Source of the DNA: an uncultured bacterium
Lineage (GTDB): Bacteria > Verrucomicrobiota > Verrucomicrobiia > CAIQCK01
DNA length: 64,000 bases
Direction of reading: 5' to 3'
Assembly (NCBI GenBank): GCA_903870275.1
Contig: CAIQCK010000121.1
Span: forward strand, 192,461-256,460
The notes below the pieces were generated by a model that worked only from the letters and a program-made list of their open reading frames with translations, was not told where the DNA came from and ran no database searches. A program made the position numbers and the translations under genes. Below are positions 1 to 42,273 of the stretch, one piece after another (within the stretch, counting starts at the first letter, position 1; every line of letters starts with the position of its first letter).

Positions 1-5
1 GCCAG

Positions 6-11691: not shown

Positions 11692-11721
11692 GATTGCATC
11701 CCGCACCAAAGGAACATCACC

Positions 11722-14021: not shown

Positions 14022-17000
14022 ATGATGAAGAGCAGATTATTGCTGAAGCCTTGGAAACAAATGGCCGTGTTGGCTTTGGCGTTTTTCGCGAGTGCCGGAG
14101 TTTCAAATGCCGGCGAAACAGCCGTCAACCCGGCTGTGCTCGCCAACGCGCGCGAAATTCAGGATGCCACCGGTGTTAAAGGTGGCCTTATCGTCCATGT
14201 CGGCTGCGGCGACGGCACGCTGACGGCGGCGCTGCGAACGAGCGACAGTTTTATTGTTCACGGCCTCGACGCCGATGCGGCAAACATCGCGGCGGCGCGG
14301 CAGCACATCCAGTCGCTCGGTCTTTACGGGCCGGTGTCGGTCGAGACGTGGAGCGGCAAGCGGCTGCCTTACGCCGACAACCTCGTCAACCTCGTCGTGG
14401 TCAGCGACGAATCATCGGTTGGCCGTAACGAAATTCTGCGCGTGCTGGCTCCCGGCGGCGCGGCGCTTATTGTCAATTCCCGGTCACCGGGGCCCGATTC
14501 CCGATGGGTGAAACCGCTTCCGGGCGACACGGATGAGTGGACCCATTTTCTTCACGACGCCGGCAACAACGCCGTCGCGCACGACGCGCGCGTGGCCGCG
14601 CCGCGGTCGCTGCAATGGAGCGCGCCGCCGCTCTGGCTGCGCAGCCACGAAACGCCGTCGGGCGTTGAGGCGATGGTTTGCGGCGGCGGGCGGTTGTTTT
14701 ACATCTTCGACGAAGGACTGGTGGGCATCACCGACCAGCGGCTGCCGGAGCGATGGGCGTTGCTCTGCCGCGACGCGTTCAACGGCAAACTGCTCTGGCG
14801 GCGGCCGATTGAGAAATGGGGCTGGCCGGAATGGGCGCCGGAGAAATTTTCCACCGATTGGACCACCATCGTTGGCGGACGCACGATCGTGCCCGATGAA
14901 AACCAGCGCCGGCTCGTGGTGGACGGCGACCGGCTTTACGCGACGCTGAGTTACCGCGCGCCGCTTTCCATCCTCGACGCGGCTACCGGCAAAACGCTCG
15001 CGACGGTCGCCGACACCGCGCCCGTGCGGCAGATCGTCGCGGCCGATGGCGTGGCCTTGGTTTATTCGCACGACGCCAAGCCCGAGGTGGGGCCGTTGAG
15101 GCCGAAAGGCAAGGGGATGGTCAACGACGCTCCGCAAGGCGCGTTGATCGCTGTGCGCGGCGCGACCGGCCAGGTGCTCTGGCGCAAGAGCATCCCTGCG
15201 CTGCGCGGGTTGTCGCTGGCGATTGACGGCGGGCGCGTGGTGTTTCAGCACGGCAAGACGCTGAGCGCCCTCGACTTGAAGACGGGCGAACAACGCTGGC
15301 AGGCCGAAATCGACGAGGCAAACGTCCGCACGCTGGTGGCCTGCGCCGGCGCGGTGGTTTTGCTGGGTCAAAAGGGCCTGGAGACGCGCGACGCTGCGAC
15401 AGGCAGTCTGCTGTGGCAAAAAGAAGTGCCGCTGGCTCGCGGCCTAGGCAGCGAGGGACTTTACATCGTCAACGGCGTCGTCTGGCCGGACATGATTTCG
15501 GTGGATGACGGCCAGCAGCCGGACCTCAAGAGCAAAAGCCCGAACGTGCTGGCCGTCGGATACGATCTGCGCACTGGTGAGGAGCGTAAACGCATCTTCG
15601 TCCAGAACCTTCGCAGCCCGGAGCATCACCACCGGTGTTACCGGAACAAGGCGACGGACCGGTTCCTCATCAGTTCGCTGGAAGGCACCGAGTTCCTCGA
15701 CTTGCGCGGCAGCGAGCACACGCAGAATAATTTCGTCCGCGGCGCGTGCCGGCTCGGCATGATGCCGTGCAACGGGATGCTCTACGCGCCGCCCGACCAG
15801 TGCTTCTGCGAGCCGGGCTCGAAGCTTCTGGGCTTCAAAGCGCTCGCGCCGGAGCGGCCGTTGGGCGCGGAGAATGAAGTTTCGGACGCGGAACGGCTCG
15901 AACGCGGTCCCGCCTACGGCGCGACAATCCAAAATCCAAAATCCAAAATCCAAAATTCAGAGGATTGGCCGACCTACCGTCATGACGCGGCGCGACACGG
16001 CTCGACGCCGGCCGCGGTCGCGACGCCGCTGGGCGAGACCTGGTGCGTAAAGCTGGGCGGCGGTCTGACACAACCGGTCGCGGCAGAGGACCGCGTTTAC
16101 GTCGCGTCGAGGGACACGCACGCGCTCCACGCGCTGGAGTTGAAGACGGGCAAGCCGCTGTGGACGTTTGTCGCGGGCGGGAGGATTGACTCGCCGCCGA
16201 CGCTTGTGAGCGGTCTGGTGTTGTTTGGCAGCGCCGACGGCCATGTCTATTGCCTGCGCGCTGCCGACGGCGCGCTGGCGTGGCGGTTTCTGGCCGCGCC
16301 GGGCGAGCGGCGCATCGTCGTGGACGACCAGATCGAATCGGCCTGGCCGGTCCACGGCAGCGTGTTGGAGCGCGACGGCGTCGTGTATTTCACTGCCGGC
16401 CGTTCGAGCTACCTCGACGGTGGCATCCGGTTCTACGCGCTTGAGCCGGCCACCGGCAAAGTGCTCCGCCAGGCGACGCTGGCCGGACCGTTCCCCGACG
16501 GCAAAACCACGCGCGACGTTTCCTTCTACATCAACGGCGCCAACAACGACGTGCTGGTCAGCGAAGGCGGTTCAATCTACATGCGCCAGAAGCGGCTGAC
16601 ACCGGCGCTCGCGGAGCAGACCGCCGGGGAACTTTCCAAAATGGGCGAGAAGGATGTGGGTCTGCACCTGTTCTCCACGGCCGGGCTGCTCGATGCGTCG
16701 TGGTATAACCGGACGTTCTGGATGTATTCGAAGCGCTGGCCCGGTTTTCAGCTTGCCAACCAGGCGCCCAAAAGCGGCCAACTGCTCGTCGTGGACGGCG
16801 AGCGCACCTTCGGCGTGCAGCCGTTCTATCGGCGGAATGTCCACAGCCCCATGTTTTTTCCGGCCAAGGAAGGTTACCTGCTCTTTGCCGACAGGAACGC
16901 AACCGAGCCGCAGATCGTCGGCGAGGAGGGTGCGCGCAAACCCGTGGTGTGGCTCCCGCAGTCCGACTACGAACGCGGCGGCGGCCGGGCGGTCGAGAAG

Positions 17001-17342: not shown

Positions 17343-17349
17343 TCCAAGC

Positions 17350-20300
17350 ATGAACCGATTTGCGACCTGCACCCTCATCGCCGCGCTGGCTTGGGTTTCC
17401 GCCAACGCGGATCAACCGTCGGCGTCACAGATTCTCAAAGAGACCGGCATCCAAGGCGGCCTCGTCGTTCACGTCGGTTGCGGCGATGGCTCGTTGACGG
17501 CGGCATTGCGCGCGAACGACAGTTTTATTGTCCAGGGTCTCGATACCGACGCGAAGCATGTCGAGGCAGCGCGCAAGCACATCGCGTCGCTCGGCCTTTA
17601 CGGCAAGGTGACGGCGGAGCCGTGGGACGGCGGGCGGCTGCCTTACATCGAGAACTTCGTCAACCTCGTCGTGGTGAGCGAGGGGTGCCGTGTGGCGGAG
17701 GAGGAGATCATGCGCGTGCTTGCGCCCAACGGCGTGGCCATCGTCGGAAGCCGAAAGATCGTGAAGCCGCGGCCGAAGGAAATGGACGAGTGGACGCATT
17801 ACCTGCACGACCCCGGCAACAACGCCGTCGCGCATGATTCGCTGGTCGGCCCGCCGCGACAGTACCAGTGGATTGGCGGGCCACGCTGGTCGCGGCATCA
17901 CGACCACATGAGCAGTATCAGCGCAGTGGTCTCGGCCAATGGCCGGCTGTTCTACATCGTGGACGAAGGTCCGCGCGCCTCCATCCTGTTGCCGCCCCAA
18001 TGGTCGCTCGTCGCCCGCGATGCGTTCAACGGGACCATCCTCTGGACGCGTCCCATCCCGGAATGGAACACACAACTCTGGCCGCTCAAGAGCGGTCCCA
18101 ACCAGCTTCCGCGCAGGCTGGTGGCCGCCGGCGACCGCGTGTATGTCACGCTCGGCATTGACGCGCCGGTGAGCGAACTCGATGCAGCCACGGGCCGAAC
18201 GTTGCGCGCGTTCGAGGGCACGCAGGAAACCGACGAAATCCTGTTTTCCGACGGCATGCTGTTTCTGCTGGTGGCCGAAGCGCCGAACCAATGGAAGGAT
18301 TACCGGCCGAAGCACACCTACGTTTGGGACAACACAAACCGCGCGAACAAGGAATGGGCGTGGGACCGGCAGAGGCGTCACGTCATGGCTGTGGACGCCG
18401 GCAGCGGCCGCAAGCTCTGGAAATCCGAGCAACGCGTCGCGCCGCTGACGCTGGCGTTGGACACACAGCACGTGTTCTTCTACGACGGCGAGAAAACCGT
18501 CGCCTTGGACCGCAAGAGCGGCCAGCCGTTGTGGTCATCGGAACCGGTTCCTCACAAACAGCCGTTCCCGACCGGCTATGGGCCAACGCTGGTGGCGCAG
18601 GACGACGTGGTGCTGCTCTCCGTCGAGCGCTTGACCATGACCGCTTTCGCCGCAGCCACCGGCAAGAAGTTGTGGTCGGCCGAGCATCATCGCGGCGGCC
18701 ACGCTTCACCCGACGATTTGTTGGTCATTGACGGCCTCGTGTGGTCGGGCCGGATTGCGGATGGCAAGGACGATGGCGTTTTCACCGGTCGCGACCTGCG
18801 CACGGGCGAGGTCAAAAGCGAGTTCGCCTGCGACAACGTCAACTACTGGTTTCATCACCGCTGCTATCGCGCGAAGGCGACCGACCGGTTTATTCTGACC
18901 TCGCGCACGGGCACGGAGTTTGTGGATATCGCAGCGAAGCACTGGGACCTCAACCACTGGGTTCGCGGCGCGTGCCTCTACGGGGTGATGCCCGCCAACG
19001 GTCTGCTCTATGCGCCGCCGCATCCGTGCGCCTGCTACCTCGAATCGAAGCTGTCCGGTTTCAACGCACTCGCGCCGGCGCGCCCAACCATGGAACGTGG
19101 AGCGTCGAGCGTGGAGCGTCTCGAACGCGGCCCGGCCTTTGCGGAAATCCAAAACTCAAAAACCAAAATCCAAAATGCGGAAGATTGGCCCACCTACCGC
19201 AGCGACGCCGCCCGCAGCGGCTTTGCGAAAACGGATGTGCCGTCCGACCTCAAGCTTGCCTGGCAAGCGGACATCGGCGGCAAACTCAGCAGCGTCACGG
19301 TCGCGGACGGCCGGGTGTTCGTCGCGTCGGTGGACACGCACACGGTGCATGCGCTCGACGCGGCCACGGGCAAACCGGCGTGGACATTCACTGCCGGCGC
19401 ACGCGTGGATTCGCCGCCGACGATTTGGACGGGGCGCGTGCTCTTTGGCTCGGCCGATGGTTGGGTCTATTGTCTGCGCGCGGAGGACGGCGCGTTGGTG
19501 TGGCGGTTTCGCGCCGCGCCGGAAGAGCGGCGGATGATGGCCATTGAGCAGTTGGAATCGGTCTGGCCGGTTTCCGGCGCCGTGCTGGTGCGCGACGGTG
19601 TGGTGTTTTGCGTGGCCGGCCGCTCGGCGTTTCTCGACGGCGGCATGCGGCTGTTGCGGTTGGACGCGGCGACAGGCCGCGAATTATCCGAGACGGTCCT
19701 CAACGACCGCGACTTGTCCACTGGCGAGCCGCTGCAAAAATTCGTGCAACAACTCGACATGCCCACCGCCCTGCCGGATGTGCTTTCCTGCGACGGCCGC
19801 TCGGTATACATGCGCGCCCAGCGGTTTGACCTCAACGGCGCGCGGCAGGAGTTCGCGCCGATGGACCCCAAGGAACAAACGGGCGAGGGAGTGCATTTAT
19901 TCTCGCGCAGCGGCTTCCTCGACGACACCTGGTGGCACCGGTCCTTCTGGATGTATGGGCGGGGAGTGAAGTCCGGATACGGCGATTGGTTCAAGCCGGG
20001 AAACTACGCGCCGTCGGGCCGTTTGATGGTGTTCGACGATTTCGCGCTCTACAGCTTCGACCGCAAGCCGATGTCCATGTGCAACGCCTCGGTCTATGAT
20101 TACTATCTCTATGCCGCCGACAAACAGACCAAGGAGGAGGCCATCCAGCGCGTGACCGCCGCCAACGGCCGGATGAACGCTGCTTCGATCAAGAAGGTCG
20201 CATCCACTTCCGACTGGGCGCTGCGGAAAAAGTTCTCGCTCAGCGAACTCTCCGCCGCCGGCTTCAAGTGGGCGGAGGGCGATCTGCCGCTGCTGGCTCG

Positions 20301-21186: not shown

Positions 21187-21195
21187 GCTTCATCC

Positions 21196-22287
21196 GTGCA
21201 AAAATGCCGCGCATATTCCGACTCGGTCCTCTTGGGGAGGCCACGAGTCTGGCCAGTCGTCGCAGTCGTTTTTTGCTGGACCGTGGTTTTTAACGCGTTC
21301 GCGTGTTCGGTGCCGGTGTTTCGCTACGCGCTCGACCGCTGGCCGGCGGAGAACTACGAGCTTCGCGTGGACCGTGCCGCCGCCGCCACGCCGGAGATGA
21401 CAACGCTGCTGGGGGCGCTCCGCACCAATTCGCTCGCAAACGTGACGGTTCAGACGTCGGCCATCGCGGGGCCGGCGACAGCGAAACTGGTTTTTCCCGA
21501 TCCGCCGGGCGGCGAAGTGTGGAGCGGACCATTGAGCGCCGCCAATTTGGAACTGGCGTTGGACTCGCCGGTCCGGCGCGAGATCGCCCGCCGCATTGTC
21601 CACGGCGAGTCGGCGGTGTGGGTGCTGGTCGAATCCGGCGACGCTGCGGCGGACGACAAAGTCGCAAGCGCGCTGGAGCGGCGGCTCAAACAATGGGTGT
21701 CGGCCGCCGCGCTGCCGGAGCAGGACCCCAACGATCCGACCAGCCAGATCGGCCCCGGTCCCGCGCTGGCGTTGCGGTTCTCGGTCCTGCGCTTGTCGCG
21801 GAAAGATCCGCGCGAGGCTGTAACGCTGGCGATGTTCGAGGCCAACAGCGACGAGATCAGGCGGCTCCGCACCGTGCCCATCGCGTTTCCGGTGTTCGGC
21901 CGCGGCCGCGTGCTCGCGGCGGTGCCGAAGGAAAACCTGACGGACGAGAGCATTGACGAAGTGTGCGCGTTCATCGTGGGCGCTTGTTCGTGCCAAGTGA
22001 AGGACTCGCGCACCGGCTGGGACTTGCTGCTGAGTTTCAACTGGGACGAGGAACTCGCGCGCGTGGAGGAGCAGCGGCAGAGTGCCGCGGTGGCGGCCCC
22101 GCCGGCGGCGCCGGCCAATCCGCCCGCCGCGCAGTCCGCGCTGAAACCGGAGACTGTCACGATTCGCGGCGGGTCCGCCGCCGGCGCGCCTGGCGCGATG
22201 AATGGGCGCGCGTGGTTGGCGGTCGCGCTGGTTCTCGCCTGCATGGGAGGAATTGCAGCGGTGGGATGGAGCAGGAGAAAACGATGA
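21196..22287 (+). CDS. Hypothetical membrane-anchored protein with an N-terminal hydrophobic segment and a C-terminal TM with basic tail. It is translationally coupled to modA.
   Basis: It starts 9 bp after the P2 stop. Its stop overlaps the modA start as ATGA (22284-22287). It reads 'VWPVVAVVFCWTVVFNAFA' ... 'AWLAVALVLACMGGIAAVGWSRRKR'. I recognise no known domain. Confidence 0.6.
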   Translation: MQKCRAYSDSVLLGRPRVWPVVAVVFCWTVVFNAFACSVPVFRYALDRWPAENYELRVDRAAAATPEMTTLLGALRTNSLANVTVQTSAIAGPATAKLVFPDPPGGEVWSGPLSAANLELALDSPVRREIARRIVHGESAVWVLVESGDAAADDKVASALERRLKQWVSAAALPEQDPNDPTSQIGPGPALALRFSVLRLSRKDPREAVTLAMFEANSDEIRRLRTVPIAFPVFGRGRVLAAVPKENLTDESIDEVCAFIVGACSCQVKDSRTGWDLLLSFNWDEELARVEEQRQSAAVAAPPAAPANPPAAQSALKPETVTIRGGSAAGAPGAMNGRAWLAVALVLACMGGIAAVGWSRRKR

Positions 22288-23822
22288 AACGAGCCGTAAC
22301 CATCATTGCCGTCCTTGGGGTGACATTGGGAATCATCGTGTGGTTTTACCGGCAGGCCGCGCCGTCGTCGGCGGGCCGGACGCTCACGGTGTATTGCGCC
22401 GCCGGCATCAAGAAACCCGTCGAAGCCATCGCCACGGCTTACCGCGACGAGTTCGGCGTCAACGCCGGGTTGCAATACGGTGGGACCGCTTCGTTGCTGA
22501 GCGCGATCCGAGTCGCGAAAACCGGCGACCTTTTCATCGCCGCCGACGCCACCGCCATCGCGGACGCGCGAAAGATGGGCCTGGTGCGCGAGGTGTTGCC
22601 GCTGGTGCGCCAGACGCCGGTAATCGCTGTGATGAAAGGCAACCCGAAAGGCATCCGCGCGCTCGACGATCTATTGCGGCCGGGCGTGCGGTTTGCGCTC
22701 GCCAACCCGGAGAGTGCCAGCATCAGCCGCGTGGTGAAGCGGCTGCTCGGCCCGCGCTGGGAAACGTTCAGCGCGCGCGCGGTGGTGCTCAAACCGACGG
22801 TGATGGACATTGCCAGCGACGTGACGCTCGGCGCGGTGGACGCGGCATTGGTGTGGGACTCGACCACGTCGCAGTTTGCCGCGCTGGAGATCGTGCCGGC
22901 GGCGGAGTTCGCCGGCGCTGCGGAAACGGCCAGCGTGGCGGTGCTCGCCGCGTGCGCACAGCCGGCAGCGGCGCTGCGGTTCGCGCGCTACTTGACCGCG
23001 CCGGAGAAAGGCGCGCCAATTTTTGCCGCGCAAGGTTTTCATCCTGCCGGCGGCGACAAGTGGAGCGGGAAACCGACGCTGGTGCTCTACAGCGGCGGCG
23101 TCAACCGGCCGGCGATACAGCAGACGCTGAAAGAGTTCGCCGACCGCGAGGGCGTGGACCTCACGACGGTGTTCAACGGTTGCGGCATCCTCTGCGCGAC
23201 GATGCGCGCGATGGCGAAGACACCGGGCGCGAACATTCCCGACGCCTACTACGCCTGCGACGTTTGTTTTGTGCCGCCCGTCGCCGATCTCTATCCGGAG
23301 GCGGTGGTCCTGACGGAAGCCGACATCATGCTCGCCGTGCCGAAGGGCAACCCGAAAAACCTCCACGCGTTGTTGGACCTCGCGCAGCCCGGCCTTAAGA
23401 TCGGCATCTGCAACTCCGAGCAGTCCACGCTCGGCTACATGACCAAAGGCATGCTCAAGGAGACCGGGCTTTACCCGTCGGTGATGAAGAACGTCTGTTC
23501 GCAGGTGCCGACTGCCGACCTGCTGATCAACCAACTCCGCACCGGTTCGCTCGATGCGGCCATCGTTTATGACGTGAACGCGAAACCCGTTGCGGCGTAT
23601 ATAGATACTATGCCGATCAAGCACGCCGGGGCCAAGGCCGCGCAGCCGTTCGCGGTGGCGGCGCATTCGCCGAACGCGCTGCTCGCGCACCGGCTGCTTG
23701 ATTTTCTGCGCGCCAACCGCGAGCGTTTTGAGAAGGCCGGTTTCCACTGGCGCGACGACGGGACCGCCATCGTGAGCAAGGACATTGTCGTGCCGGATTA
23801 CCTGAAGAAAGCCAATGACTGA
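22284..23822 (+). CDS. modA: Tandem-fused (two-domain) ModA-like molybdate/tungstate ABC transporter substrate-binding protein.
   Basis: Signal/TM 'MKRAVTIIAVLGVTLGIIVW'. The first half is 'TLTVYCAAGIKKPVEAIATAYRDEFGVNAGLQYGGTASLLSAIRVAKTGDLFIAAD'. The second half is 'TLVLYSGGVNRPAIQQTLKEFADREGVDLTTVFNGCGILCATMRAMAKTPGANIPDAYYACD'. Both fit the ModA/WtpA type-II periplasmic binding protein pattern. Confidence 0.8.
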   Translation: MKRAVTIIAVLGVTLGIIVWFYRQAAPSSAGRTLTVYCAAGIKKPVEAIATAYRDEFGVNAGLQYGGTASLLSAIRVAKTGDLFIAADATAIADARKMGLVREVLPLVRQTPVIAVMKGNPKGIRALDDLLRPGVRFALANPESASISRVVKRLLGPRWETFSARAVVLKPTVMDIASDVTLGAVDAALVWDSTTSQFAALEIVPAAEFAGAAETASVAVLAACAQPAAALRFARYLTAPEKGAPIFAAQGFHPAGGDKWSGKPTLVLYSGGVNRPAIQQTLKEFADREGVDLTTVFNGCGILCATMRAMAKTPGANIPDAYYACDVCFVPPVADLYPEAVVLTEADIMLAVPKGNPKNLHALLDLAQPGLKIGICNSEQSTLGYMTKGMLKETGLYPSVMKNVCSQVPTADLLINQLRTGSLDAAIVYDVNAKPVAAYIDTMPIKHAGAKAAQPFAVAAHSPNALLAHRLLDFLRANRERFEKAGFHWRDDGTAIVSKDIVVPDYLKKAND

Positions 23823-24609
23823 CCAGCATCGCGCCGGGCCGAACTGGCCCTTCTGGGTCACGATCGCCGTCATCACCGCCGCTTACCTCGCGTTGTTGCT
23901 CGGGATGCTGGCGGCCACGGCCACCTACAGCTCGCCGCATCATCTCCTCCACGCGCTCGGCTCGCGCGAAATCCAATACGCCACCGGCCTCAGCCTCGTC
24001 AGTTGCACCATCGCCGCGCTGCTGTCGCTCGTCGTCGCCGTGCCCGTCGGCTACCTGATGTCGCGCGGCCGGTTCGCCGGCAAGAACACGCTCGACACGC
24101 TGCTCGACGTGCCGATTGTCCTGCCGCCGATGGTGATCGGGTTGTGTTTGCTGATTTTGTTCCAGACGCCGATCGGACGGGCGATTGATCGCGTCGTGCC
24201 GTTCACCTACACGGTGTTCGGCGTGCTGCTGGCGCAGTTCACCGTCGCCGCGGCGTTCGCCGTGCGGCAGATGCGGACGACGTTCGATCATTTGCCGTCG
24301 CGGCCGGAGGACGTGGCAATGACGCTCGGTTGCTCGCGCGGCCGGGCCGTCTGGCTCGTCACGCTGCCCGCCGCCAAGCGCGGGATGTTCAGCGCCGCGA
24401 GCATCGCGTGGGCGCGGAGCCTCGGCGAGTTCGGGCCGATCCTGGTTTTCGCCGGCGCGACGCGGATGAAAACCGAGGTGCTGCCGACGACGGTCTGGCT
24501 GGAACTGAGCGTCGGCAACCTGGAGGCGGCGATTGCGGTGAGCCTGATGATGGTGGCGTTGGCAGTGGCGGTGCTGCTGGCGATGCGTGCGGTGGGGGAG
24601 AGGCCATAA
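23815..24609 (+). CDS. modB: ModB-like ABC transporter permease (molybdate/tungstate/sulfate CysTW family).
   Basis: Length is 264 aa with 6 TM helices. The EAA-like loop is 'AMTLGCSRGRAVWLVTLPAAKRG'. An 8-bp overlap with modA. Confidence 0.85.
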   Translation: MTDQHRAGPNWPFWVTIAVITAAYLALLLGMLAATATYSSPHHLLHALGSREIQYATGLSLVSCTIAALLSLVVAVPVGYLMSRGRFAGKNTLDTLLDVPIVLPPMVIGLCLLILFQTPIGRAIDRVVPFTYTVFGVLLAQFTVAAAFAVRQMRTTFDHLPSRPEDVAMTLGCSRGRAVWLVTLPAAKRGMFSAASIAWARSLGEFGPILVFAGATRMKTEVLPTTVWLELSVGNLEAAIAVSLMMVALAVAVLLAMRAVGERP

Positions 24610-24709
24610 AGAAAATGGATCCACGGATTACACGGATTGCACGGATGGCGGATTCGGAATCAGATTTTCTTTCCATGTCATCAGTGAAATCCGTGGATGC
24701 TTTCCCATC
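24610..24709. repeat. Intergenic inverted repeat plus a short tandem direct repeat between modB and modC.
   Basis: 'ggatccacggatt' pairs with the reverse complement 'aaatccgtggatgc'. The direct repeats are 'cacggatt acacggatt gcacggatgg cggattcgg'. Confidence 0.6.
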
Positions 24710-25387
24710 ATGATCGCCCTTGAACACATCGCCATTCGCGCCGGCGCGTTCGCGCTGAGCGACGTTTCCTTTACGGTGCCGGAAGCGGTTTACGGCGTGC
24801 TCATGGGGCCGACCGGCTGCGGCAAGACGACGCTGGTGGAAATCATCTGCGGCTTGCGAAAGCCCGAATCCGGCCGCGTGCTGGTGAACGGCCGCGACGT
24901 GACGCACGAGTCGTCCGGCAACCGCGGCGTCGGCTACGTGCCGCAGGACGGCGCGATGTTCCCGACGATGACCGTCCGCCAGCAACTCGGCTTTGCGCTG
25001 CGAATCCGGCGGCGGCCCGTGGAGGAAACGGCGGCGCGCGTCGCAGAGCTGGCGTCGCAACTCGGCATCGCGCACCTGCTCGACCGCAAGCCGCACGGTC
25101 TCTCCGGCGGCGAACGGCAGCGCGTGGCGTTGGGGCGGGCGCTGGCGGCGCGGCCGGCGGTGCTGCTGCTCGACGAGCCGCTCTCTGCGCTCGACGAAAA
25201 CATGCGCGGCGACATGCGCGACCTGCTCAAGCGTGTCCAACGCGAGCACGGCGTCTCCGTGCTTCACGTCACCCACGACCGCTCCGAGGCGCGGCAGGTG
25301 GCCGGTCTGTTGCTCGTGATGACGGAGGGTTGCGTGCGGCCGGCGGATTTGAATACACTGGGAGCGCCATGCACCTGCCAGCCTTGA
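24710..25387 (+). CDS. modC: ModC-like ABC transporter ATP-binding protein. There is no C-terminal TOBE/Mop domain.
   Basis: Walker A 'GPTGCGKTT', ABC signature 'LSGGERQRV', Walker B 'LLLDEPLSALD', H-loop 'HVTHD'. Confidence 0.85.
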   Translation: MIALEHIAIRAGAFALSDVSFTVPEAVYGVLMGPTGCGKTTLVEIICGLRKPESGRVLVNGRDVTHESSGNRGVGYVPQDGAMFPTMTVRQQLGFALRIRRRPVEETAARVAELASQLGIAHLLDRKPHGLSGGERQRVALGRALAARPAVLLLDEPLSALDENMRGDMRDLLKRVQREHGVSVLHVTHDRSEARQVAGLLLVMTEGCVRPADLNTLGAPCTCQP

Positions 25388-26118
25388 CCGACGACGAGCG
25401 CACCATCTACCAGTGGCAGATGTGGGTTCCGGGTTTGGGCGAGGAGGGCCAGCGGAAACTCAAAGGCGCGTCGGTGCTCATCTCCCGCGTCGGCGGCCTC
25501 GGCGGCGTGGTGGCTTACGAACTGGCCGCCGCGGGCGTCGGTCGGCTCGTGCTCGCCCACGCTGGCAACCTCAAGCCCGCCGACCTGAACCGCCAGCTTC
25601 TCCAGACCCACGACCACATCGGCAAACCGCGCATCGAGTCCATCGCGCGCCGGCTGCGCGATCTCAACCCGCGCCTCGACATCGTCGCGGTCTGCGAAAA
25701 CGTCACTGAGGAAAACGCCGGCAGTCTTGTGGCGCAGGCGGATGTGGTGGTGGACGCCGCGCCGCTCTTCGAGGAACGGTTCGCGCTGAACCGCGCCGCT
25801 GTCCGTCAGGGCAAACCGATGGTCGAGTGCTCCATGTATTCGATGGAAGCACACGTCACGACGATCCTGCCGGGCCGCACCGCGTGCCTGCAATGCCTCG
25901 TTCCCGAAAAACCCGCCGACTGGAAGCGCCAGTTCCCCGTCATCGGCGCGGTTTCCGGCACCGCCGGCTGCGTCGGCGCGGTCGAGGTCATCAAACTCCT
26001 TACCGGCATCGGCGACCCGCTCGCCGGCGCAATGCTGGTGATGGACCTCCGGACCATGAACTTCCGCCGCGTCAAAACCGCGCGCAGGCCCGATTGCCCC
26101 GTGTGTGCTGGAAGCTGA
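25369..26118 (+). CDS. moeB: ThiF/MoeB-family E1-like adenylyltransferase (molybdopterin-synthase adenylyltransferase-like).
   Basis: Nucleotide-binding 'VLISRVGGLGGVVAYELAAAGVGRLVLAHAGN' and a C-terminal zinc knuckle 'CLQC...DCPVCAG'. A 19-bp overlap with modC. Confidence 0.8.
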   Translation: MHLPALTDDERTIYQWQMWVPGLGEEGQRKLKGASVLISRVGGLGGVVAYELAAAGVGRLVLAHAGNLKPADLNRQLLQTHDHIGKPRIESIARRLRDLNPRLDIVAVCENVTEENAGSLVAQADVVVDAAPLFEERFALNRAAVRQGKPMVECSMYSMEAHVTTILPGRTACLQCLVPEKPADWKRQFPVIGAVSGTAGCVGAVEVIKLLTGIGDPLAGAMLVMDLRTMNFRRVKTARRPDCPVCAGS

Positions 26119-26167
26119 CGGCTGGCGTCTGATCTCTAAGCACTGACCTCTGTCCCGTTCTCAGTTC

Positions 26168-26782
26168 TCAGTTTGTCCCCAACGCATTTCCTGCCGCCTT
26201 ACTGCCGATTTCGCGCAGGGTTTTCCAGGCAGCGGAGTCTTGAGGACTGGGGGAAACCAGCAGGATCAAACAGGTCTGTTTTGACGCCGGCCGCGGCATC
26301 ACGAGGGCTTCCACATGGAGGGTGAGCTTGCGGCCGTCGGAAAAGGAGTCGAAGAAAACGACTTCGGCGGCGAAGCGTTTCTTTCCAGCCGGGCTGGGCG
26401 GCATCGCATTCACCACGGCCCTCATTTGTCCGGCGTCCGGCGAGAGTCCCTTGCCCCGGCCCACGGCGATGCTGAGTCCGCGGTAATACTTCTCAAGAAA
26501 ATCCTTGAGCTCCGTCGCGCCCAGTTCCGGCGCGCCGTCGGCCAGAATGGCCACCACATAGGTGAAATAGGTGCTGGTGCGGGTGTCGAACATTCCGGGA
26601 GCGAAACGGATTTCCTCGGAGCCGGTGAGCTTGATGTCCGGCGCAAATCCTGGAGGGATGGCCATTCCTTCGAAGCGCCAATCCGTGGGCTCTTTGAGAA
26701 TCGTGGGGCGGTCCGGCCCGGCGGCATTGAGCGGGACCTGCAAAGCCAGCAACAGGAGTGTGAAACCAAGGATTTGTTTCAT
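26168..26782 (-). CDS. Hypothetical secreted protein.
   Basis: Signal peptide MKQILGFTLLLLALQVPLNAAGP. It is coding-like in composition, with no recognisable domain. It is the last gene of the minus-strand operon. Confidence 0.55.
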   Translation of the reverse strand: MKQILGFTLLLLALQVPLNAAGPDRPTILKEPTDWRFEGMAIPPGFAPDIKLTGSEEIRFAPGMFDTRTSTYFTYVVAILADGAPELGATELKDFLEKYYRGLSIAVGRGKGLSPDAGQMRAVVNAMPPSPAGKKRFAAEVVFFDSFSDGRKLTLHVEALVMPRPASKQTCLILLVSPSPQDSAAWKTLREIGSKAAGNALGTN

Positions 26783-26792
26783 GGGAGTTTCT

Positions 26793-27647
26793 TCATACGC
26801 GCAGCCTGTCACCGGCGGCGAACGCGTCCCGGACGGTGGCGGTCCTGAGCATGAGGATGCAGGCGACAGGCCAAACGCAACCGAGAAGCATCAAGACGGC
26901 AGTCCAAAAGACCTTCATAACGCGCGCGCTGCTGCTGTTGTTGGTTGTGGGCGCGAAAGACTGCCCTGTGGTCGAAAACTGCTTCTGCTGCACCTTCGTC
27001 ATTTCGAGCAGCGATTTCGTTCGCTGCAGATTCGCTTTCGCCTCCGGGGTCGCCAACTGCGGGTCCTTGTCCATCTCCGCCTGCTGCCTTTGCACATCTT
27101 TTTCCAAACTGGCGGTCATCTGCTGGCTCTGCTGCGCCAACTCGGCATGCATGTTCTGCACCGCTTGCATTACCTCGTCGCCGAAAACAGCATGCGCGAC
27201 AAGAGGATGGATCACTGCGGCAACAATAAGGGCGATGCTCACGCCGATGGCCAGTCTTCTTGCCCAACCGGCCATGCAAAGGAGGCCGATGCCGGAGATT
27301 AGAAGAAGCAACCTGAGCAGACCATCCACGCCGCCTGAGATGGCATAACTGGCCTTCATCCGTGGTGTTGCGAATGTGTTTACAAACTTCGCCTGAGCCG
27401 ACAACAAGTCGGAATGCGTCCGGGCGAATTGTTCGTCCGCGCGTTTCTGAGACTCGGTTTCGTCCAAAGCCTTGCCGGATTCGCGCAACGTCTGCAGGGC
27501 GTGATTTTGCACTTCCTGTGCAAATCCAAAACCCTTTTGGACCAATGTCGGCGTGGCCATCGTCATCACGGCGAGGCAGCCGCATAGCAGGCCGAACACG
27601 ATGTTGACGATGGCAACCGCAGTTACAAGACCGGGACGTTTTTGCAT
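26793..27647 (-). CDS. Hypothetical integral membrane protein (about 4 TM).
   Basis: The N-terminal and C-terminal parts are hydrophobic-helix-rich (VTAVAIVNIVFGLLCGCLAVMTMA and VFWTAVLMLLGCVWPVACILML). The middle is Q/E-rich. It lies 82 bp downstream of P3. Confidence 0.55.
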   Translation of the reverse strand: MQKRPGLVTAVAIVNIVFGLLCGCLAVMTMATPTLVQKGFGFAQEVQNHALQTLRESGKALDETESQKRADEQFARTHSDLLSAQAKFVNTFATPRMKASYAISGGVDGLLRLLLLISGIGLLCMAGWARRLAIGVSIALIVAAVIHPLVAHAVFGDEVMQAVQNMHAELAQQSQQMTASLEKDVQRQQAEMDKDPQLATPEAKANLQRTKSLLEMTKVQQKQFSTTGQSFAPTTNNSSSARVMKVFWTAVLMLLGCVWPVACILMLRTATVRDAFAAGDRLRV

Positions 27648-27729
27648 GGCGAATACCTCCTGTGCCAGAACCTCACTTCAGGTTCCTGGCTGAACGTTAA
27701 AGATCAGGTGCTCATGAGATCGGCGCGGC

Positions 27730-32574: not shown

Positions 32575-32715
32575 ATTCACGACTCCAATACTCCGCCACT
32601 CCATCACTCCAATACTTCACCACTCCACATCGCAGCCCGGCCGGCGATGGCGCCCGCCATGGAGCGTCACATCCATCGTCCGGTATTGTCATCGAGCGTA
32701 GGCAACGCCCGGACC

Positions 32716-32835
32716 GAAGGCGAGGTTGAAATGCCTGTCGCCAAAGCCTGCCGGATTTCAACGCGGAGGCGCAGAGGACGCAGAGGTTCTGCAAGAGCCT
32801 TTGCGCTTCTCGGCGTTCTCTGCGTCTCTGCGGTT
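32716..32835. promoter_or_regulatory. Conserved non-coding element, copy A, upstream of P3 and downstream of the response regulator.
   Basis: It shares its termini with copy B at 37130-37324. Left end: 'gaaggcgaggttgaaatgcc' versus 'gaaggcgaggttgaaatggcc'. Right end: 'gagcctttgcgcttctcggcgttctctgcg' versus 'gagcctttacgtttctccgcgttctctgcg'. Confidence 0.5.
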
Positions 32836-32871
32836 GACTCCGTCTCCATCCGGCTGGCCACGCGCGGTTGC

Positions 32872-33396
32872 TTAGGATTCCGAAAGGGGGATGAACTGCC
32901 GGTTCTCGTGCCACGGTTTGTTCGCCAGCTCCGCGAGCATTTCTTCTGCCAGCGACGTGACAAACTCCGTCGTTGTTGATGCCGCCGCGCCAGCAGCCGC
33001 ATCGCGTTGGTCAAACAGTTCGTCCACCCGCCTCAACAAGTCGGGCAGTTGATTGGTCTTGGAGAAGTAACCATCCGCTCCCACCATGAAACCTTCGACT
33101 CTGTAACTGGCCGGGTCCAGCGCCGACATGATCCAGATCGGCACATGCCCCATGGCCGGGTTGCCCCGAATGGAACGGCAGACTTCCAAGCCCGGCATTT
33201 TCGGCAGCATCAGGTCCAGCACGATCAAGTCCGGGCGGCAACGGGAAGCTTGATCCAGCCCGCTCTCGCCATCGGCGGCGATGACCGTTTCATGTCCTTT
33301 TTGTTGCAGGCGATACTTTAAGATCGCCGCGAAGTCCTGTTCATCCTCGATGATGAGCACCCGCTTCCGTCCCATGTCTTGGCCTAGTCCATTCAT
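32872..33396 (-). CDS. Stand-alone response-regulator receiver domain (CheY-like).
   Basis: 'KRVLIIEDEQDF...PDLIVLDLMLPKMPGLEVCRSIR...PIWIMSALD...GADGYFSKT'. There is no output domain. The start is ambiguous among 33447, 33396 and 33375. Confidence 0.7.
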   Translation of the reverse strand: MNGLGQDMGRKRVLIIEDEQDFAAILKYRLQQKGHETVIAADGESGLDQASRCRPDLIVLDLMLPKMPGLEVCRSIRGNPAMGHVPIWIMSALDPASYRVEGFMVGADGYFSKTNQLPDLLRRVDELFDQRDAAAGAAASTTTEFVTSLAEEMLAELANKPWHENRQFIPLSES

Positions 33397-33447
33397 GCCG
33401 CGAATCAAACACGGATTCGTAACGAGACGGCGGCGTTTGAGTGACAA

Positions 33448-33920
33448 GTGGGTAAAAAGCAGGTAGGGACGGCGCGCTGCGCCGTCCGCGCATGGTTCGC
33501 CGATGACAACAACCTTCGCCCCTACCTTTTCAGCCAGAATCCCAACGGGATTCTAGCACTCAGCCCAGGGTTGCGAGGTTGCGGCAACTTTGGGCTGAGT
33601 GATGTTGCCCCGTTGGGGCAAATGCGGCGACTCGCGGCGTTTGCTGTAGCGGCGGTCTCTGCCCCCGAAAGCTTTCGGGGCTGACCGCCGGATAACTGGG
33701 AGGGGCGACATTCTTGTCGCCCGATGATGATTCGGCGACAGGAATGTCGCCGCTCCCAGTTCATTACGATTTGATTTCGGTGGTAGGGCGCGACCGTCGG
33801 GCGCGCCGCATCGTTGTTTCGGCCGGCCCAGCGGTCCGGCCCTACCTTTCGGCGGTCAGAGACCGCCGCTACAGGGCGCGATCCATCGTTTCAGAAACGA
33901 TCCTCAAAACACGGAGGAAT
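33448..33920. other. Hairpin-dense non-coding spacer between P4 and the response regulator, carrying at least 8 strong palindromes.
   Basis: Hairpins found: 33467-33487 ggacggcgc-gct-gcgccgtcc; 33558-33601 cactcagcccagggttgc/gcaactttgggctgagtg; 33604-33620 ttgcccc-gtt-ggggcaa; 33663-33680 ccccgaaagctttcgggg; a 24-bp inverted repeat at 33698-33721 / 33734-33757 in which each arm is itself a hairpin; 33848-33866 cggcggtc-aga-gaccgccg; 33876-33892 atcgttt-cag-aaacgat. Confidence 0.6.
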
Positions 33921-36900
33921 TTATTCTGACTTGCCGAAGCAGAGGGCCTTGCCGTTTTGCAGGGTGAGAAAGACGTGCTGGCCGGCGAGCGCGAGGCTGT
34001 CATAGACCGGTGGCATTTCCAGCGGATACTCCGCCACGATCCGGCCGTCTTTGGTCGAAAGCAGCGCGAGAAATCCGCTGACGGCGCCGGCGTCGCACAC
34101 GGTTCCCGCCACGACCACTGCGTTGTCGCACAACGACATCGCCTCGGCCTGGTGATTGGCCGGCATCGCCTGCCGCCACGCGTAATCTTCCCGCGCCAGC
34201 TTCCCGGCACCCGCGGTCTTCGCGCGCTCCATGGCGTAGCACGAGCGCGACTTGCTCTCATAGCCAAAGACGGTGTTCCCGTTCCAACAGAAGATTTCCG
34301 CGGTGGCGCGGCCGAACTTTTGCCCGCCGGATCGGCGTGTGCCCATGCGGGTCCACGAGCCGTCCATCAACGCTTCCAGCGGCGCGTCGCGCTCGCCCTT
34401 GGCCGCGACATCGCCCTCGCCGGTCTTGGGGTCGAATTGAAGATGATGGAGTTTGATGCTTCCGTCGCGCGCGACGAGCAGATCGTTTTCGCGGACGGGG
34501 CCGGGACCGACCTCCCTGGCCCAGAGCTGCCGGCCGCTGGCGGGATCGAGCGCGCAGACGGCCAGGCCGCCGTCGGTTTCCGACGAACGGCCGGCCGACG
34601 CGTAGAGCACGCCCTCGTGGACCAGCACCGATCCGGGCACCGGCCAGACGGACTCCATCGCGCCGAACGCCACCATGCGGCGCTCCCAAGGCGCGATGCG
34701 CGCGCGCCACGCCAGTTGGCCGTCGCGGGCGCGAAGCGCGTAAACCCATCCGTCGTGCGAGCCGATCAGGCAGAGGTCGCCGTGGATCGTGGGCGGCGAA
34801 TCGAGCCGCCCGCCCACCGTGGCGCGCCAGAGCGGCTTGCCGGTGGCGGCGTTGAGCGCGACGACTTGAGCGGTGTCCGTGGCGGCTGCGAAAACCATTC
34901 CGTTGGCGACGACGGGCGCGCTGAGGCAGGAGGTGAGCTGCGCCTGCCACGCCGCCGCGAGCGGACCGGTGGGAGGACGAGCGGCTTCGCGCTGCCAGAG
35001 GAGTTTGAGTTTTTCAGGGATCGCGCTCTGGGTGGCGCCGCTGCGTTCGCCGTCGTGGCGGTAGAGGGGCCAGTCTACTGAATTTTGGATTTTAGATTTT
35101 GGATTTTGGATTTCGGAATTAGAAGTTGGGAGTTGGGGGGTGGAATTTTGGATTTGCTTCGCAGGTCTCGCAGACTCGGCTTTGGATTTTAGATTTTGGA
35201 TTTCGGATGTTGGCGATTGGCGATTGGAGATTTGAGATTTGGAATCTGGAATTTGAAATTTCGCACCGAAGGCGGGGCCGGGCTCGATGGGACGCGGCTT
35301 TTCAAATTCGCCGGCCGCGGGCGGGTCGCCGCTGGGGCCGAACGCAACGAAGCCCGGCACCTGGCCCGGCGCGCACCGGCAGAAGTTCTGGCCGGTGAAA
35401 AACATGCCGAGCGCCGGGGTCGCGCCTTCGATGCAAGCGCCGCGGGCCGCGGCATAACTGATATGCGTGGCGCTGCCCTTGAACGTCGCGCCCTCCGGCG
35501 ATGGCGCCAGCTCCAGGTAGGAGCAGCCGCGGCTGGCGGTGACGTAGTTGCCGACGACGGCGGCCGGCGTGCACATCGGCGAGTCCATGGAGACCGGCAA
35601 CAGGCCTTTCACCTCGCCCGTCCTGGGATCGTATTTTTTGCTTTCGTGCCAGAGCAGGCCGTCCACCAGCGGCGTCCAGAATCGGCCGGCCGGTTTGATC
35701 TCCCACAACACCTTGCCGTCGGCGGCGGAGAGGATGGAGATCGTCTTCGCCTTGGGCCGGGCGACGGAGAGCATGCCGAGACCCGCGCAGTTGAGATTCA
35801 TCGGCGTCGCCGGCTCGAACTGCGTGTGCTCGACGCGCCATCGCTCGCGGCCGGTTTGCAAATCCACCGCGACGATCCGCTGGCCGGTCGGCGGGTTGCC
35901 CGATTGCAGCAGCAGATAAACGACGCCGTCGGCGGTGACCATCTCCTGCGCCGGCACCGGCAGGGACCATTTCGCCGCGCCGCTGGCCGCGTCGAAGGCT
36001 TCGATCGCGCCCGCCGCGCCGGTCTTGTTCACCCACGGCGCCCAGATGACGCCGCGCTCGAACTGCTTGAGTTCCTCCTTCGCTTCCCAGCCGGAAGAGA
36101 TCAGCACGTTCTGCGAGAGGAGCAGGCGGACGGTCTGGTATTTCACCGGGCAACTGACCGCGACCGCGCCGCTGGCGGCGTCGAGTCCGACGAGGCGGTC
36201 CTTTTTGTAAACATAAACGCGGCGGTCGTCGGCGACGATGGGGGCGAGGTTGAAGGCGTTGAGGGCCTGGCCGTTGTCGAGCGTCTCGCAGTTCAGTTTC
36301 CAGAGCGGCAGGCCGTTGAACGCGTCGCGCGCGGTGACGTATTGCTCCTGCTTGTGTTTGGCGAACGACGCCGGCGCGAGGTTTTCTAGCTCCGTGGTGC
36401 TGAGCGTGAAACAGCGGCCGTTGGCGATGACCCAGCCGCGGCAGGCGGCCCACATGTTGAAGTTCATCGGCAGCCCGTCCTGCCAGCGGAGGCCGGAGGG
36501 AAACTTCACGACGCGGTCGGCCGAGACGCGGTTGCCGTCGGCGCTGTGCGCCGGTTGCGGCCAGTCGTCCATTTCCGGCGGACGCGGCTTGACCGAGCGG
36601 GTCCATCGGCCGGCCTTGCGGACGCAGATCGCGCCGCCGGGCGCGACGATGCGCTCGACCTCCGCGGTCGTCAGGCCTTGCGCGCTCAGGGCGGGCCAGT
36701 CCTCGATCACCACGAGATTGGCGAGGTCGCGGAGGTAAGGAAGGTGAACTAAAGGCATCTTCTCTACCATCGCTTTTCCGGCGATCCCCCTCGTCTCGAT
36801 GGCTTTGCGCGCGCGATCGAGCGCGGCGTCGTCGAGCGCCAGCCCGTGCACGAGGAGGTTGCTGTCGGCGGCGAGGTCGGCGGTGAGGGCTGGGTTGTTC

Positions 36901-37067
36901 TTGGAGCCGCAGCCGAGATGAACACAGAGGCCGATCTTGACGCCCGCGACTTCGAGGATTTGGTCCGCTTGCGTTTTGGCGGGCGCAGCGTTGGCATTGA
37001 GAGTCCACGCGAGAATCAGTCCAATGACGGACAGCAGTGACAGGAATTTTTGAGTCATGCGCATCAT
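33921..37067 (-). CDS. Paralog P4 (1048 aa). Secreted MTase-fold (degenerate motif I) plus PQQ-like beta-propeller multidomain protein, with an expanded IQNxKSK linker.
   Basis: Signal MMRMTQKFLSLLSVIGLILAWTLNANA. MTase fold 'GLCVHLGCGSKNNPALTADLA...LVHGLALDD...LPYLRDLANLVVIED'. The linker 'IQNLKSK...IQNSTPQLPTSNSEIQNPKSKIQNSVDWPLYRHDGERSG' is followed by the C-terminal propeller 'GKPLWRATVGGRLDSPPTIHGDLCLIGSHDGWVYALRARDGQLAWR'. Confidence 0.8.
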   Translation of the reverse strand: MMRMTQKFLSLLSVIGLILAWTLNANAAPAKTQADQILEVAGVKIGLCVHLGCGSKNNPALTADLAADSNLLVHGLALDDAALDRARKAIETRGIAGKAMVEKMPLVHLPYLRDLANLVVIEDWPALSAQGLTTAEVERIVAPGGAICVRKAGRWTRSVKPRPPEMDDWPQPAHSADGNRVSADRVVKFPSGLRWQDGLPMNFNMWAACRGWVIANGRCFTLSTTELENLAPASFAKHKQEQYVTARDAFNGLPLWKLNCETLDNGQALNAFNLAPIVADDRRVYVYKKDRLVGLDAASGAVAVSCPVKYQTVRLLLSQNVLISSGWEAKEELKQFERGVIWAPWVNKTGAAGAIEAFDAASGAAKWSLPVPAQEMVTADGVVYLLLQSGNPPTGQRIVAVDLQTGRERWRVEHTQFEPATPMNLNCAGLGMLSVARPKAKTISILSAADGKVLWEIKPAGRFWTPLVDGLLWHESKKYDPRTGEVKGLLPVSMDSPMCTPAAVVGNYVTASRGCSYLELAPSPEGATFKGSATHISYAAARGACIEGATPALGMFFTGQNFCRCAPGQVPGFVAFGPSGDPPAAGEFEKPRPIEPGPAFGAKFQIPDSKSQISNRQSPTSEIQNLKSKAESARPAKQIQNSTPQLPTSNSEIQNPKSKIQNSVDWPLYRHDGERSGATQSAIPEKLKLLWQREAARPPTGPLAAAWQAQLTSCLSAPVVANGMVFAAATDTAQVVALNAATGKPLWRATVGGRLDSPPTIHGDLCLIGSHDGWVYALRARDGQLAWRARIAPWERRMVAFGAMESVWPVPGSVLVHEGVLYASAGRSSETDGGLAVCALDPASGRQLWAREVGPGPVRENDLLVARDGSIKLHHLQFDPKTGEGDVAAKGERDAPLEALMDGSWTRMGTRRSGGQKFGRATAEIFCWNGNTVFGYESKSRSCYAMERAKTAGAGKLAREDYAWRQAMPANHQAEAMSLCDNAVVVAGTVCDAGAVSGFLALLSTKDGRIVAEYPLEMPPVYDSLALAGQHVFLTLQNGKALCFGKSE
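35080..35270 (-). repeat. Expanded, interrupted array of the heptanucleotide repeat (ttggatt on +, aatccaa on -) inside P4.
   Basis: On the + strand: gaattttggattttagattttggattttggatttcgg ... ggaattttggatttgc ... ctttggattttagattttggatttcggatgttgg ... gagatttgagatttggaatctggaatttgaaattt. Confidence 0.8.
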
Positions 37068-38508: not shown

Positions 38509-38555
38509 TGTAACATGATCGTAACAATGGCGTGAGAAGATGCGGGACACGGAGC

Positions 38556-42270: not shown

Positions 42271-42273
42271 GCC

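Follow-up and report, generated by a model that had tools for sequence, protein, structure and literature searches.

Gene content of the locus and kinship of the four paralogues

The window, i.e. the whole stretch of DNA analysed, comprises 64,000 nt, and all positions refer to it. Its region 14022-37067 contains four large genes (P1 to P4), whose reading frames are uninterrupted, together with the genes and sequence elements collected in Table 1; mtaC-mtaB, AraC and TauE genes, on which the initial annotation is silent, lie directly upstream of P1.

Table 1. Genes, repeat arrays and upstream blocks of the locus.
Feature	Position	Strand	Description
P1	14022..17342	+	signal peptide, class-I methyltransferase (MTase)-like domain (~aa 37-165), propeller 1, disordered linker, propeller 2
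Array in P1 linker	15926..15956	+	heptanucleotide array (AAATCCA) x4.4
P2	17350..21186	+	paralogue with C-terminal extension of ~190 aa; opens the conserved operon
Array in P2 linker	19145..19176	+	heptanucleotide array x4.6
unk	21196..22287	+	363 aa; N-terminal signal/anchor, C-terminal TM helix, CxC motif
Substrate-binding protein (SBP)	22284..23822	+	512 aa; double SBP_bac_11, N-terminal half ModA-like
ABC permease	23815..24609	+	BPD_transp_1; ModB/Wtp/Cys family
ABC ATPase	24587..25387	+	ABC_tran; exact start uncertain
ThiF/MoeB-like adenylyltransferase	25330..26118	+	Pfam ThiF E 9e-52; exact start uncertain
orf26168	26168..26812	-	small hypothetical protein, exported; not retained in related loci
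orf26793	26793..27647	-	hypothetical membrane protein; not retained in related loci
P3	27730..32574	-	permuted paralogue: propeller 2, helical segment, MTase-like domain, propeller 1 with Cys motif, Malectin, CBM96
Two blocks upstream of P3	32716..32826	-	common to the P4 upstream region (37130-37147, 37303-37325)
Receiver-only response regulator	32872..33447	-	Response_reg; at this position specific to this genome
P4	33921..37067	-	paralogue; MTase motif I degenerate, linker expanded
Two arrays in P4 linker	35082-35117, 35181-35213	-	heptanucleotide arrays
Matching blocks upstream of P4	37130..37325	-	flank a 29-nt inverted repeat (37181-37256)

In BLASTP comparisons P1 shares 43% identity with P2 over the full length and 29% with P4 (E 5e-103), and it aligns with P3 in two blocks of swapped order (P1 645-849 with P3 25-251, P1 41-610 with P3 566-1149), which identifies P3 as a circular permutation. 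The Pfam model PQQ_2 was matched in all four proteins (E 1e-33 to 1e-38), and Methyltransf_25 exceeded its gathering score of 27 in P1 (36.1), P2 (33.1) and P3 (39.4); P4 gave no Pfam match to Methyltransf_25, though the P1 domain can be aligned to the N-terminal part of P4. P3 carries additional Malectin (1256-1321) and CBM96/DNRLRE (1459-1610) modules, and the C-terminal extension of P2 had zero Pfam or NCBIfam matches even at relaxed thresholds. In the AF2 model of P1 (pLDDT 81.7, pTM 0.89) the MTase-like domain is minimal (~130 aa); propeller 1 bears an HHHRC...C...CxC motif and propeller 2 a large insertion. Sec-type signal peptides are predicted from sequence at all four N-termini and in 107 of 120 homologues; in the sequences read they are of the A-x-A type and lack a lipobox. 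The initial annotation had described P1 to P4 as paralogues sharing a signal peptide, a methyltransferase fold, PQQ-like blades and a 'DWPTYRHD' junction motif, with P3 permuted and ending in a CBM-like module, and these descriptions agree with the alignments, the domain searches and our reading of the sequences.

The four proteins (1,048-1,614 aa) are members of a very large Sec-exported family of about 1,100 aa that has no characterised member. The family search returned 5964 matches. Species-representative genomes contain at least 583 family loci, and there are 656 clusters at 50% identity (E<=1e-30, aa 150-640), nearly all of which are ~1,050-1,100 aa long with ~140-160 residues ahead of the matched region. 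The common layout is an MTase-like domain, an 8-bladed propeller of PQQ_2 type with a His3/Cys4 motif at its end, a disordered linker and a second propeller. Hosts belong to Planctomycetota, Verrucomicrobiota, Lentisphaerota and other phyla, and the family is plentiful in members of the three named phyla from anoxic lakes, sediments and groundwater, often with multiple copies per genome. Its annotations are generic, either 'PQQ-binding-like repeat protein' or 'BamB family'. Across phyla P1 orthologues retain 60-77% identity, which points to a function under strong constraint. Family genes are typically grouped as paralogue clusters (17 of 35 informative loci); MtaB, MtaC, TauE and AraC genes were found in none of 82 loci seeded with P1. 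The literature yielded nothing relevant on a combination of MTase and propeller domains, and the structure matches are at the level of the fold, in line with the earlier statement that no characterised system of this composition was known.

A conserved six-gene operon from P2 to ThiF

P2 and the five genes that follow it (17350-26118) form a conserved, tightly packed operon whose junctions overlap or nearly abut; the stop codon of unk, for example, overlaps the start codon of the binding protein (ATGA). The order P2-unk-SBP-permease-ATPase-ThiF recurs in at least eight lineages and in samples that are unrelated. It is kept in the window and in loci L086, L157, L158, L102/L141 and L106, with partial cases in L093, L095, L098, L100, L136 and L142 and variants in L147, L142 and L010. 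L157 and L158 had been chosen solely by the length of the assembled sequence, and in L086 the binding protein is 77%, unk 49% and P2 55% identical to the genes of the window. Of 24 informative loci seeded with the binding protein, 7 contain the full cassette, 6 of them with a P gene upstream, whereas 0 of the 17 that lack the full cassette have a P gene there; many loci encode the binding protein but no P protein. Judged by the P1-seeded survey alone, in which mod/ThiF genes were present in 1 of 82 loci, there appeared to be no link to a transporter, a conclusion overturned for the P2 subfamily by the surveys seeded with the binding protein and with unk. The coupling may be restricted to this one subfamily, since most family genes, as sampled by the P1-seeded loci, have no nearby transporter.

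The transporter genes and the ThiF-like gene resemble ModABC and MoeB at the family level, every NCBIfam equivalog score being under its cutoff: the binding protein scored 58.6 with TIGR01256 (modA; cutoff 62.5), the permease 155.5 with modB (182.6) and 195 with TIGR01581 (210), the ATPase 171 with modC (285) and 216 with its top match WtpC (440), and the ThiF-like enzyme 203.7 with its best match PRK08762 (449) and 145.8 with TIGR02355 (376.6). The nearest solved relative of the binding protein is ModA (E 1e-9). The association proposed in the initial annotation holds for the P2 subfamily as one with a Mod-like cassette and a ThiF/MoeB-like gene, and the names modABC and moeB are valid at the family level only. 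As in ModABC plus MoeB, a binding protein, a permease and an ATPase of the Mod/Wtp/Cys oxyanion family are followed by a ThiF/MoeB-family enzyme; unlike that arrangement, the binding protein comprises two domains in 512 aa, and the first two genes of the operon encode an exported propeller protein of 1,300 aa and a tentatively thioredoxin-like membrane protein. The latter, unk, is the product of a gene additional to those of the initial annotation; it is a periplasmic protein anchored in the membrane, contains the motif C-S-V-P-V-F-R-Y-A-L-D-R-W and matched no Pfam or NCBIfam model, relaxed thresholds included; a tandem thioredoxin-like fold is tentatively predicted from weak Foldseek matches (E 8.5e-4, TM ~0.2-0.55).

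The remaining genes do not follow this pattern. In the closest relatives (L088 and L091) the corresponding genes have neither the receiver nor orf26168 or orf26793 between them, and the two small ORFs gave no Pfam or NCBIfam match at relaxed thresholds. A receiver adjoins family genes in ~3-6 of 82 loci, which is about the chance rate, mostly in Phycisphaerae with a full kinase set. We thus rejected the receiver as a system component and regard it and the two small ORFs as local additions, while P1, P3 and P4 are extra paralogues beside the operon that reflect the clustering habit of the family. The proposal that the entire 23 kb constitutes one co-regulated system is contradicted by these surveys: it is the transporter and ThiF genes that recur with P2-type genes, and the receiver does not. 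The upstream elements said to be shared were found ahead of P3 and P4 only, not P1, and in no related locus, so they are specific to this genome and were dismissed as a conserved regulatory element.

Heptanucleotide arrays in the inter-domain linkers

A tandem repeat whose unit is not a multiple of three is found inside the ORFs of P1, P2 and P4 and across the family. In the locus the heptamer repeats are confined to these three genes (14 matches versus 0.32 expected), so the slippery repeats noted at the outset are shared by P1, P2 and P4 and not by P3. Across lineages the arrays occupy two fixed inter-domain linkers, all of them in frame; they evolve in concert, and their length is fixed at ~4.5 units. 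Heptamers are reported to be the commonest class of long SSR among prokaryotes (PMC4679880), and the phase-variable O-acetyltransferase NeuO was the literature match for a heptanucleotide repeat (PMC13001214). A literature search on heptanucleotide repeats in Planctomycetes gave nothing relevant. The NeuO repeats lie inside the coding region, and tandem 7-nt units within an ORF are what NeuO-type or long SSRs and the family arrays have in common; in contrast to NeuO-type phase variation, the family arrays sit mid-gene in linkers at a fixed length. In consensus metagenome assemblies, none of ~110 family genes was a frame-switched OFF allele and no array length polymorphism was seen, near-identical cluster members being equal in length, and on these grounds phase variation was rejected. 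Programmed truncation was likewise rejected, because the alternative frames show no enrichment of early stops downstream of the array (17 of 84, with a background of 21%). Concerted, fixed-length linker arrays are a sequence-level feature that may be of general interest.

Proposed function of the P2 operon and competing readings

We consider it slightly better than an even bet (about 0.55) that, taken as a whole, the locus is a composite rather than one dedicated system, with a P2-to-ThiF operon for the release and uptake of an anion. For this operon we infer a mechanism in which exported P2 would act on a bound substrate outside the cytoplasm and either free a small anion or pass it on; this anion would be captured by the double binding protein and brought in by the Mod/Wtp-type ABC importer, and the ThiF/MoeB-like enzyme would serve the step in the cytoplasm, for which Mo/W-cofactor synthesis is the simplest candidate. 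Maturation of the invariant Cys cluster in the exported partner may be the task of unk, the tentatively thioredoxin-like protein. Functions suggested for other family members are likewise putative, and all structure matches are fold-level. Glycan-associated material is pointed to as the substrate by lectin-type modules (Laminin_G_3 in P2-type proteins, Malectin and CBM96 in P3) and by recurrent neighbours, namely sulfatases in 17 loci, TAT-type Gfo/Idh/MocA and DUF1080. Because these phyla are rich in sulfatases, the enrichment may in part be background. The P2 subfamily, tied to a complete uptake operon, offers the first experimental handle on an uncharacterised family.

The same modules and neighbours, to which GH127, arabinofuranosidase and the Laminin_G_3 domains of neighbouring HEAT proteins can be added, would equally suit exported enzymes or binding proteins for glycan processing, for instance of sulfated or methylated polysaccharides, with the propellers as catalytic or binding platforms and the adjacent transporter functionally meaningless. 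This is the strongest competitor, to which we give perhaps half the weight of the preferred reading. It has to contend with the association in 6 of 7 versus 0 of 17 loci, which is hardly chance, with a lack of CAZyme family similarity beyond the propeller fold, and with the high frequency of sulfatase and Gfo/Idh/MocA genes throughout these genomes, three Gfo genes being present elsewhere in the window itself.

An unlikely but broader reading joins a multi-phylum extracytoplasmic oxyanion system with nucleotide-level selection on heptamer periodicity in the coding linkers. The exported MTase-like/double-propeller enzyme, with a His3/Cys4 metal or redox site, would process an environmental form of an oxyanion, for example by freeing molybdate or tungstate from the thiolated or organic-bound forms of anoxic waters, or by methylating it; its product would feed a binding protein of two domains and an ABC importer, both dedicated to it, and the arrays would have an undescribed role at the DNA or mRNA level at the domain boundaries.

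Somewhat less likely still, P1-type proteins could be true extracytoplasmic SAM-dependent methyltransferases, with the degenerate paralogues as non-catalytic partners and an envelope component or the transporter-linked oxyanion or metalloid as the target. Motif I (GxGxG) and the acidic residue after strand 2 are conserved in P1 and P2, and P1 orthologues conserve the SAM-binding residues at 95-100%. The decay of motif I recorded in the initial annotation is evident in P3 (LGCETG) and P4 (LGCGSKNN) and was also seen in about half of a diverse set of 108 full-length representatives; given the P1 orthologues, decay is not the general rule for the fold. Family-wide, conservation is higher in motif II (LPY.DN) than in motif I, whereas the reverse is expected of active methyltransferases. 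The export signal is conserved, the domain is minimal, we know of no extracytoplasmic source of SAM, and the phrase 'periplasmic methyltransferase' has 0 occurrences in ~8 million full texts. Catalytic methyl transfer is doubtful because SAM is not known to be available outside the cytoplasm and motif I is degenerate in about half of the subfamilies. In the preferred reading the MTase-like domain is a genuine class-I fold, which probably binds a ligand in P1-type proteins and probably has a purely structural role in many paralogues, among them P3 and P4. The retention of SAM-binding residues in an exported domain poses a real biochemical question.

Non-enzymatic envelope scaffolds or chaperones resembling BamB or EMC1 are improbable: BamB and designed propellers are the best sequence-level matches and EMC1 and BamB are among the Foldseek matches, but the family proteins are three times as large as BamB, have many copies per genome and no lipobox in the sequences read, and their cross-phylum identity and invariant His/Cys cluster suit a catalytic or metal site better. 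BamB (YfgL; TIGR03300 / PRK11138) itself, the usual automatic annotation, has a PQQ_2-type 8-bladed propeller in common with the family and was rejected, since TIGR03300 gave 73-92 bits against a cutoff of 285 and the family proteins have extra domains, many paralogues and ~1,100-1,600 aa compared with ~390.

Ordinary quinoprotein dehydrogenases, named at the outset as the kind of well-characterised enzyme these proteins might prove to be, were rejected because TIGR03075 gave 39-59 bits against a cutoff of 480 and covered one to a few blades. Clusters of PQQ alcohol or methanol dehydrogenases (ped / xox-lut) are the known type that includes an associated binding protein and ABC transporter; unlike them, the P proteins have two propellers and an MTase-like domain, no cytochrome c or pqq genes were seen in the operon, and its transporter is Mod/Wtp-like rather than PedA1A2BC-like, with a ThiF-like gene attached. 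Tetrathionate hydrolase of Acidithiobacillus, a single propeller, is 13-16% identical, a likeness no better than that to other 8-bladed propellers.

Gene order and the four paralogues

The gene order of the window (G+C content of 62-67%) was determined by GC3-based gene calling and an ORF listing. Because the junctions from P1 through the ThiF-like gene are gaps of 7-9 nt or overlaps, this spacing suggests that these genes are likely co-transcribed. The corrinoid protein/MtaB pair is found directly 5' of P1, and the host genome looks like a member of the PVC group (Planctomycetes-Verrucomicrobia-Chlamydiae).

Genes and repeats of the window, with heptanucleotide arrays in related loci
Feature	Position	Strand	Remarks
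Giant PATR/PEP-CTERM ORF	3-9995	+	>3,330 aa, extends past window start; 8 PATR autotransporter-type repeats; C-terminal PEP-CTERM sorting signal
AraC regulator	10029-10913	-	
mtaC-like corrinoid protein and MtaB	11059-13101	+	B12-binding_2 + B12-binding; MtaB, methanol:corrinoid methyltransferase, E 9e-169
TauE	13113-13871	-	
P1	14022-17342	+	
P2	17350-21186	+	
unk	21196-22287	+	363 aa
Double SBP_bac_11 binding protein (SBP)	22284-23822	+	512 aa
Permease, ATPase, ThiF-like	after SBP, in that order	+	
Two small ORFs	between ThiF-like gene and P3	-	
P3	27730-32574	-	
Receiver-only regulator	32872-33447	-	
P4	33921-37067	-	
Polyphosphate cluster	37501-43758	+	ROK kinase, Ppx/GppA, polyphosphate kinase (Ppk), HD+CHAD protein
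Permease/ATPase junction repeats	24605-24712		
Periodic repeat 5' of P3	32578-32628		
Inverted repeat upstream of P4	37181-37256		
Heptanucleotide arrays	15926-15956, 19145-19176, 35082-35213		
Heptanucleotide arrays in relatives	L001, L004, L005, L016, L025, L031, L033, L051, L058, L060, L076, L082, others		related loci

The paralogy of P1-P4 noted in the initial annotation was borne out by BLASTP, which also showed P3 to be a circular permutation, and by Pfam domains: PQQ_2 is present in all four proteins and Methyltransf_25/11 scored above threshold in P1, P2 and P3, the last of which also carries Malectin and CBM96. An identity as BamB or as known quinoprotein (PQQ) dehydrogenases was rejected, the NCBIfam scores lying far below the cutoffs. 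The AlphaFold model of P1 (69 input sequences, pLDDT 81.7, pTM 0.89) predicts a minimal MTase fold (aa 37-165) and two propellers; residues 637-647 are a disordered linker, and propeller 2 contains a large insertion that is poorly ordered.

Size, conservation and export of the family

Among the scored candidates, 5964 were significant relatives of P1, many of them 60-77% identical over the full length and stemming from MAGs of Verrucomicrobiota, Planctomycetota, Lentisphaerota and Phycisphaerae. Species-representative genomes hold at least 583 family loci, including bins of Armatimonadota, Anaerolineales, Sumerlaeota and Brocadiia. The central region alone retrieved 656 clusters (50% identity, E<=1e-30); in nearly all of them the protein is approximately 1,050-1,100 aa long and the match begins after some 140-160 residues. 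Source annotations read only 'PQQ-binding-like beta-propeller repeat protein', 'BamB family' or 'methyltransferase domain-containing protein'. In some genomes six or seven paralogues form one tandem array (related loci L087, 1-19225, and L004, 1-23155).

A signal-peptide-like N-terminus about 15-20 residues ahead of motif I was detected in 107 of 120 homologues, so that an exported MTase-like domain is predicted to be characteristic of the family. P1 orthologues show almost no variation at the SAM-binding residues, at C539, C576, C594 and C596, or in the HHH535-537 run. Across diverse subfamilies GxGxG is retained in only about half, whereas motif II 'LPY.DN' is almost universal, indicating at the level of sequence motifs that the fold is always retained and canonical SAM binding is not.

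A Mod-like operon coupled to one subfamily

A first survey, seeded on P1 and covering 82 loci, found mod-like and ThiF genes in a single locus (L010), receivers in a handful, and MtaB, MtaC, TauE and AraC in none. Other family members adjoin in 17 of 35 informative loci, typically as a P1-type and P2-type pair. Also found repeatedly nearby are sulfatases (17 loci), TAT-type Gfo/Idh/MocA oxidoreductases (7), HEAT+LamG proteins (5) and DUF1080 proteins (4).

Around P0044, a homologue at the related locus L086, a P2-like gene (55% identity to the window gene), a 311-aa protein (unk, 49%) and a double SBP (77%) are followed by the permease. When metagenomes were scanned with the binding protein as seed, 69 loci emerged, with unk directly upstream in 30, ModB in 34, ModC in 29, ThiF in 18 and a P-family gene in 12. 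Of the 24 whose flanks sufficed, the 7 containing unk, SBP and ModB/C include 6 with a P gene directly upstream, against 0 of the 17 with other configurations, which sit after PSCyt/PSD+DUF1501 pairs or unrelated genes. Two unk homologues, picked solely for lying on megabase contigs, both showed the order PQQ_2+Laminin_G_3 protein, unk, double SBP, permease, ATPase, ThiF. As these and the SBP-seeded loci show, the operon is conserved in at least 8 lineages (binding-protein identity 41% to 80%).

The closest relatives, L088, L091 and L154 (ModB 91-93% identical), have the order TauE(-), unk-SBP-ModB-ModC-ThiF, P3(-) [P4(-)]; they lack P1-P2 as well as the receiver and both small ORFs. The 23-kb region, initially read as one co-regulated envelope system including the receiver, is as a whole a lineage-specific juxtaposition that places the operon next to additional paralogues and to unrelated genes; what stands is an uncharacterised exported family, with one subfamily coupled to a Mod-like uptake operon that includes a ThiF/MoeB-like gene. 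TauE adjoins the cassette again in L088, L091 and L158, and in L088 ROK and Ppx likewise come after P3.

The transporter belongs to the Mod/Wtp/Cys oxyanion family, with molybdate nearest, yet it falls below every NCBIfam equivalog cutoff; the ThiF-like protein is nearest MoeB, also below cutoff, and among solved structures ModA is the best relative of the binding protein (E 1e-9). The unk family (at least 1182 members, all named 'hypothetical', no Pfam match) nearly always lies directly 5' of the double SBP and has invariant C37, P40, V41, R43, L46, W49 and C264-x-C266 and a C-terminal TM helix; its model (pLDDT 83.7) is weakly similar to PDI b-b'-type thioredoxin-like domains in tandem. Judged by gene order and domain content, the system may process a small anion extracytoplasmically, or hand it over to the importer, in a glycan-binding context. 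The permease/ATPase junction contains a 41-nt imperfect inverted repeat and a 9-nt tandem repeat (CACGGATTA x2.8).

Heptanucleotide arrays and upstream elements

In P1, P2 and P4 the 'slippery repeats' turn out to be (AAATCCA)n arrays, 4.4-5.1 units long and located in the linker immediately 5' of 'DWPTYRHD'. Period-7/14 arrays are 5.5x denser within family genes than outside (64 vs 27; 1.21 Mb of related loci) and map to two sites only, the MTase-to-propeller-1 and propeller-1-to-propeller-2 linkers. In the latter, period-7 runs of at least 14 nt occur in 18 of 74 genes, and no runs at any other period from 4 to 12 were found. The 12-13 codons from 'GPAY' to 'DWP' are occupied in orthologues by about 4.5 units, which vary by lineage (AAATCCA, AGATCCA, AGCAGAA, GCAGTCG, CAATCCG, CAATCGA, CAACTCT and others). 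These lineage differences indicate that substitutions become homogenised from unit to unit, with length and frame held constant. All arrays are in frame; a search for OFF alleles and length variants at them returned none, and alternative-frame stops showed no enrichment. Heptamers are reported to be the commonest long-SSR class in prokaryotes, but inside genes it is units in multiples of three that are expected (PMC4679880). An ORF adjoining the family cluster of L010 (2130-2816, Lentisphaerae MAG) contains several heptamer arrays, one of 15 units (CATCCAA).

The shared upstream elements of the initial annotation are real as blocks common to P3 and P4, yet they are confined to this genome. Between the two blocks, upstream of P4 only, lies a 29-nt inverted repeat (93% complementary, 18-nt loop). 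The P3 start codon is directly preceded by an 8-nt/24-nt periodic repeat, with about six GGAG (Shine-Dalgarno-like) motifs on the coding strand.
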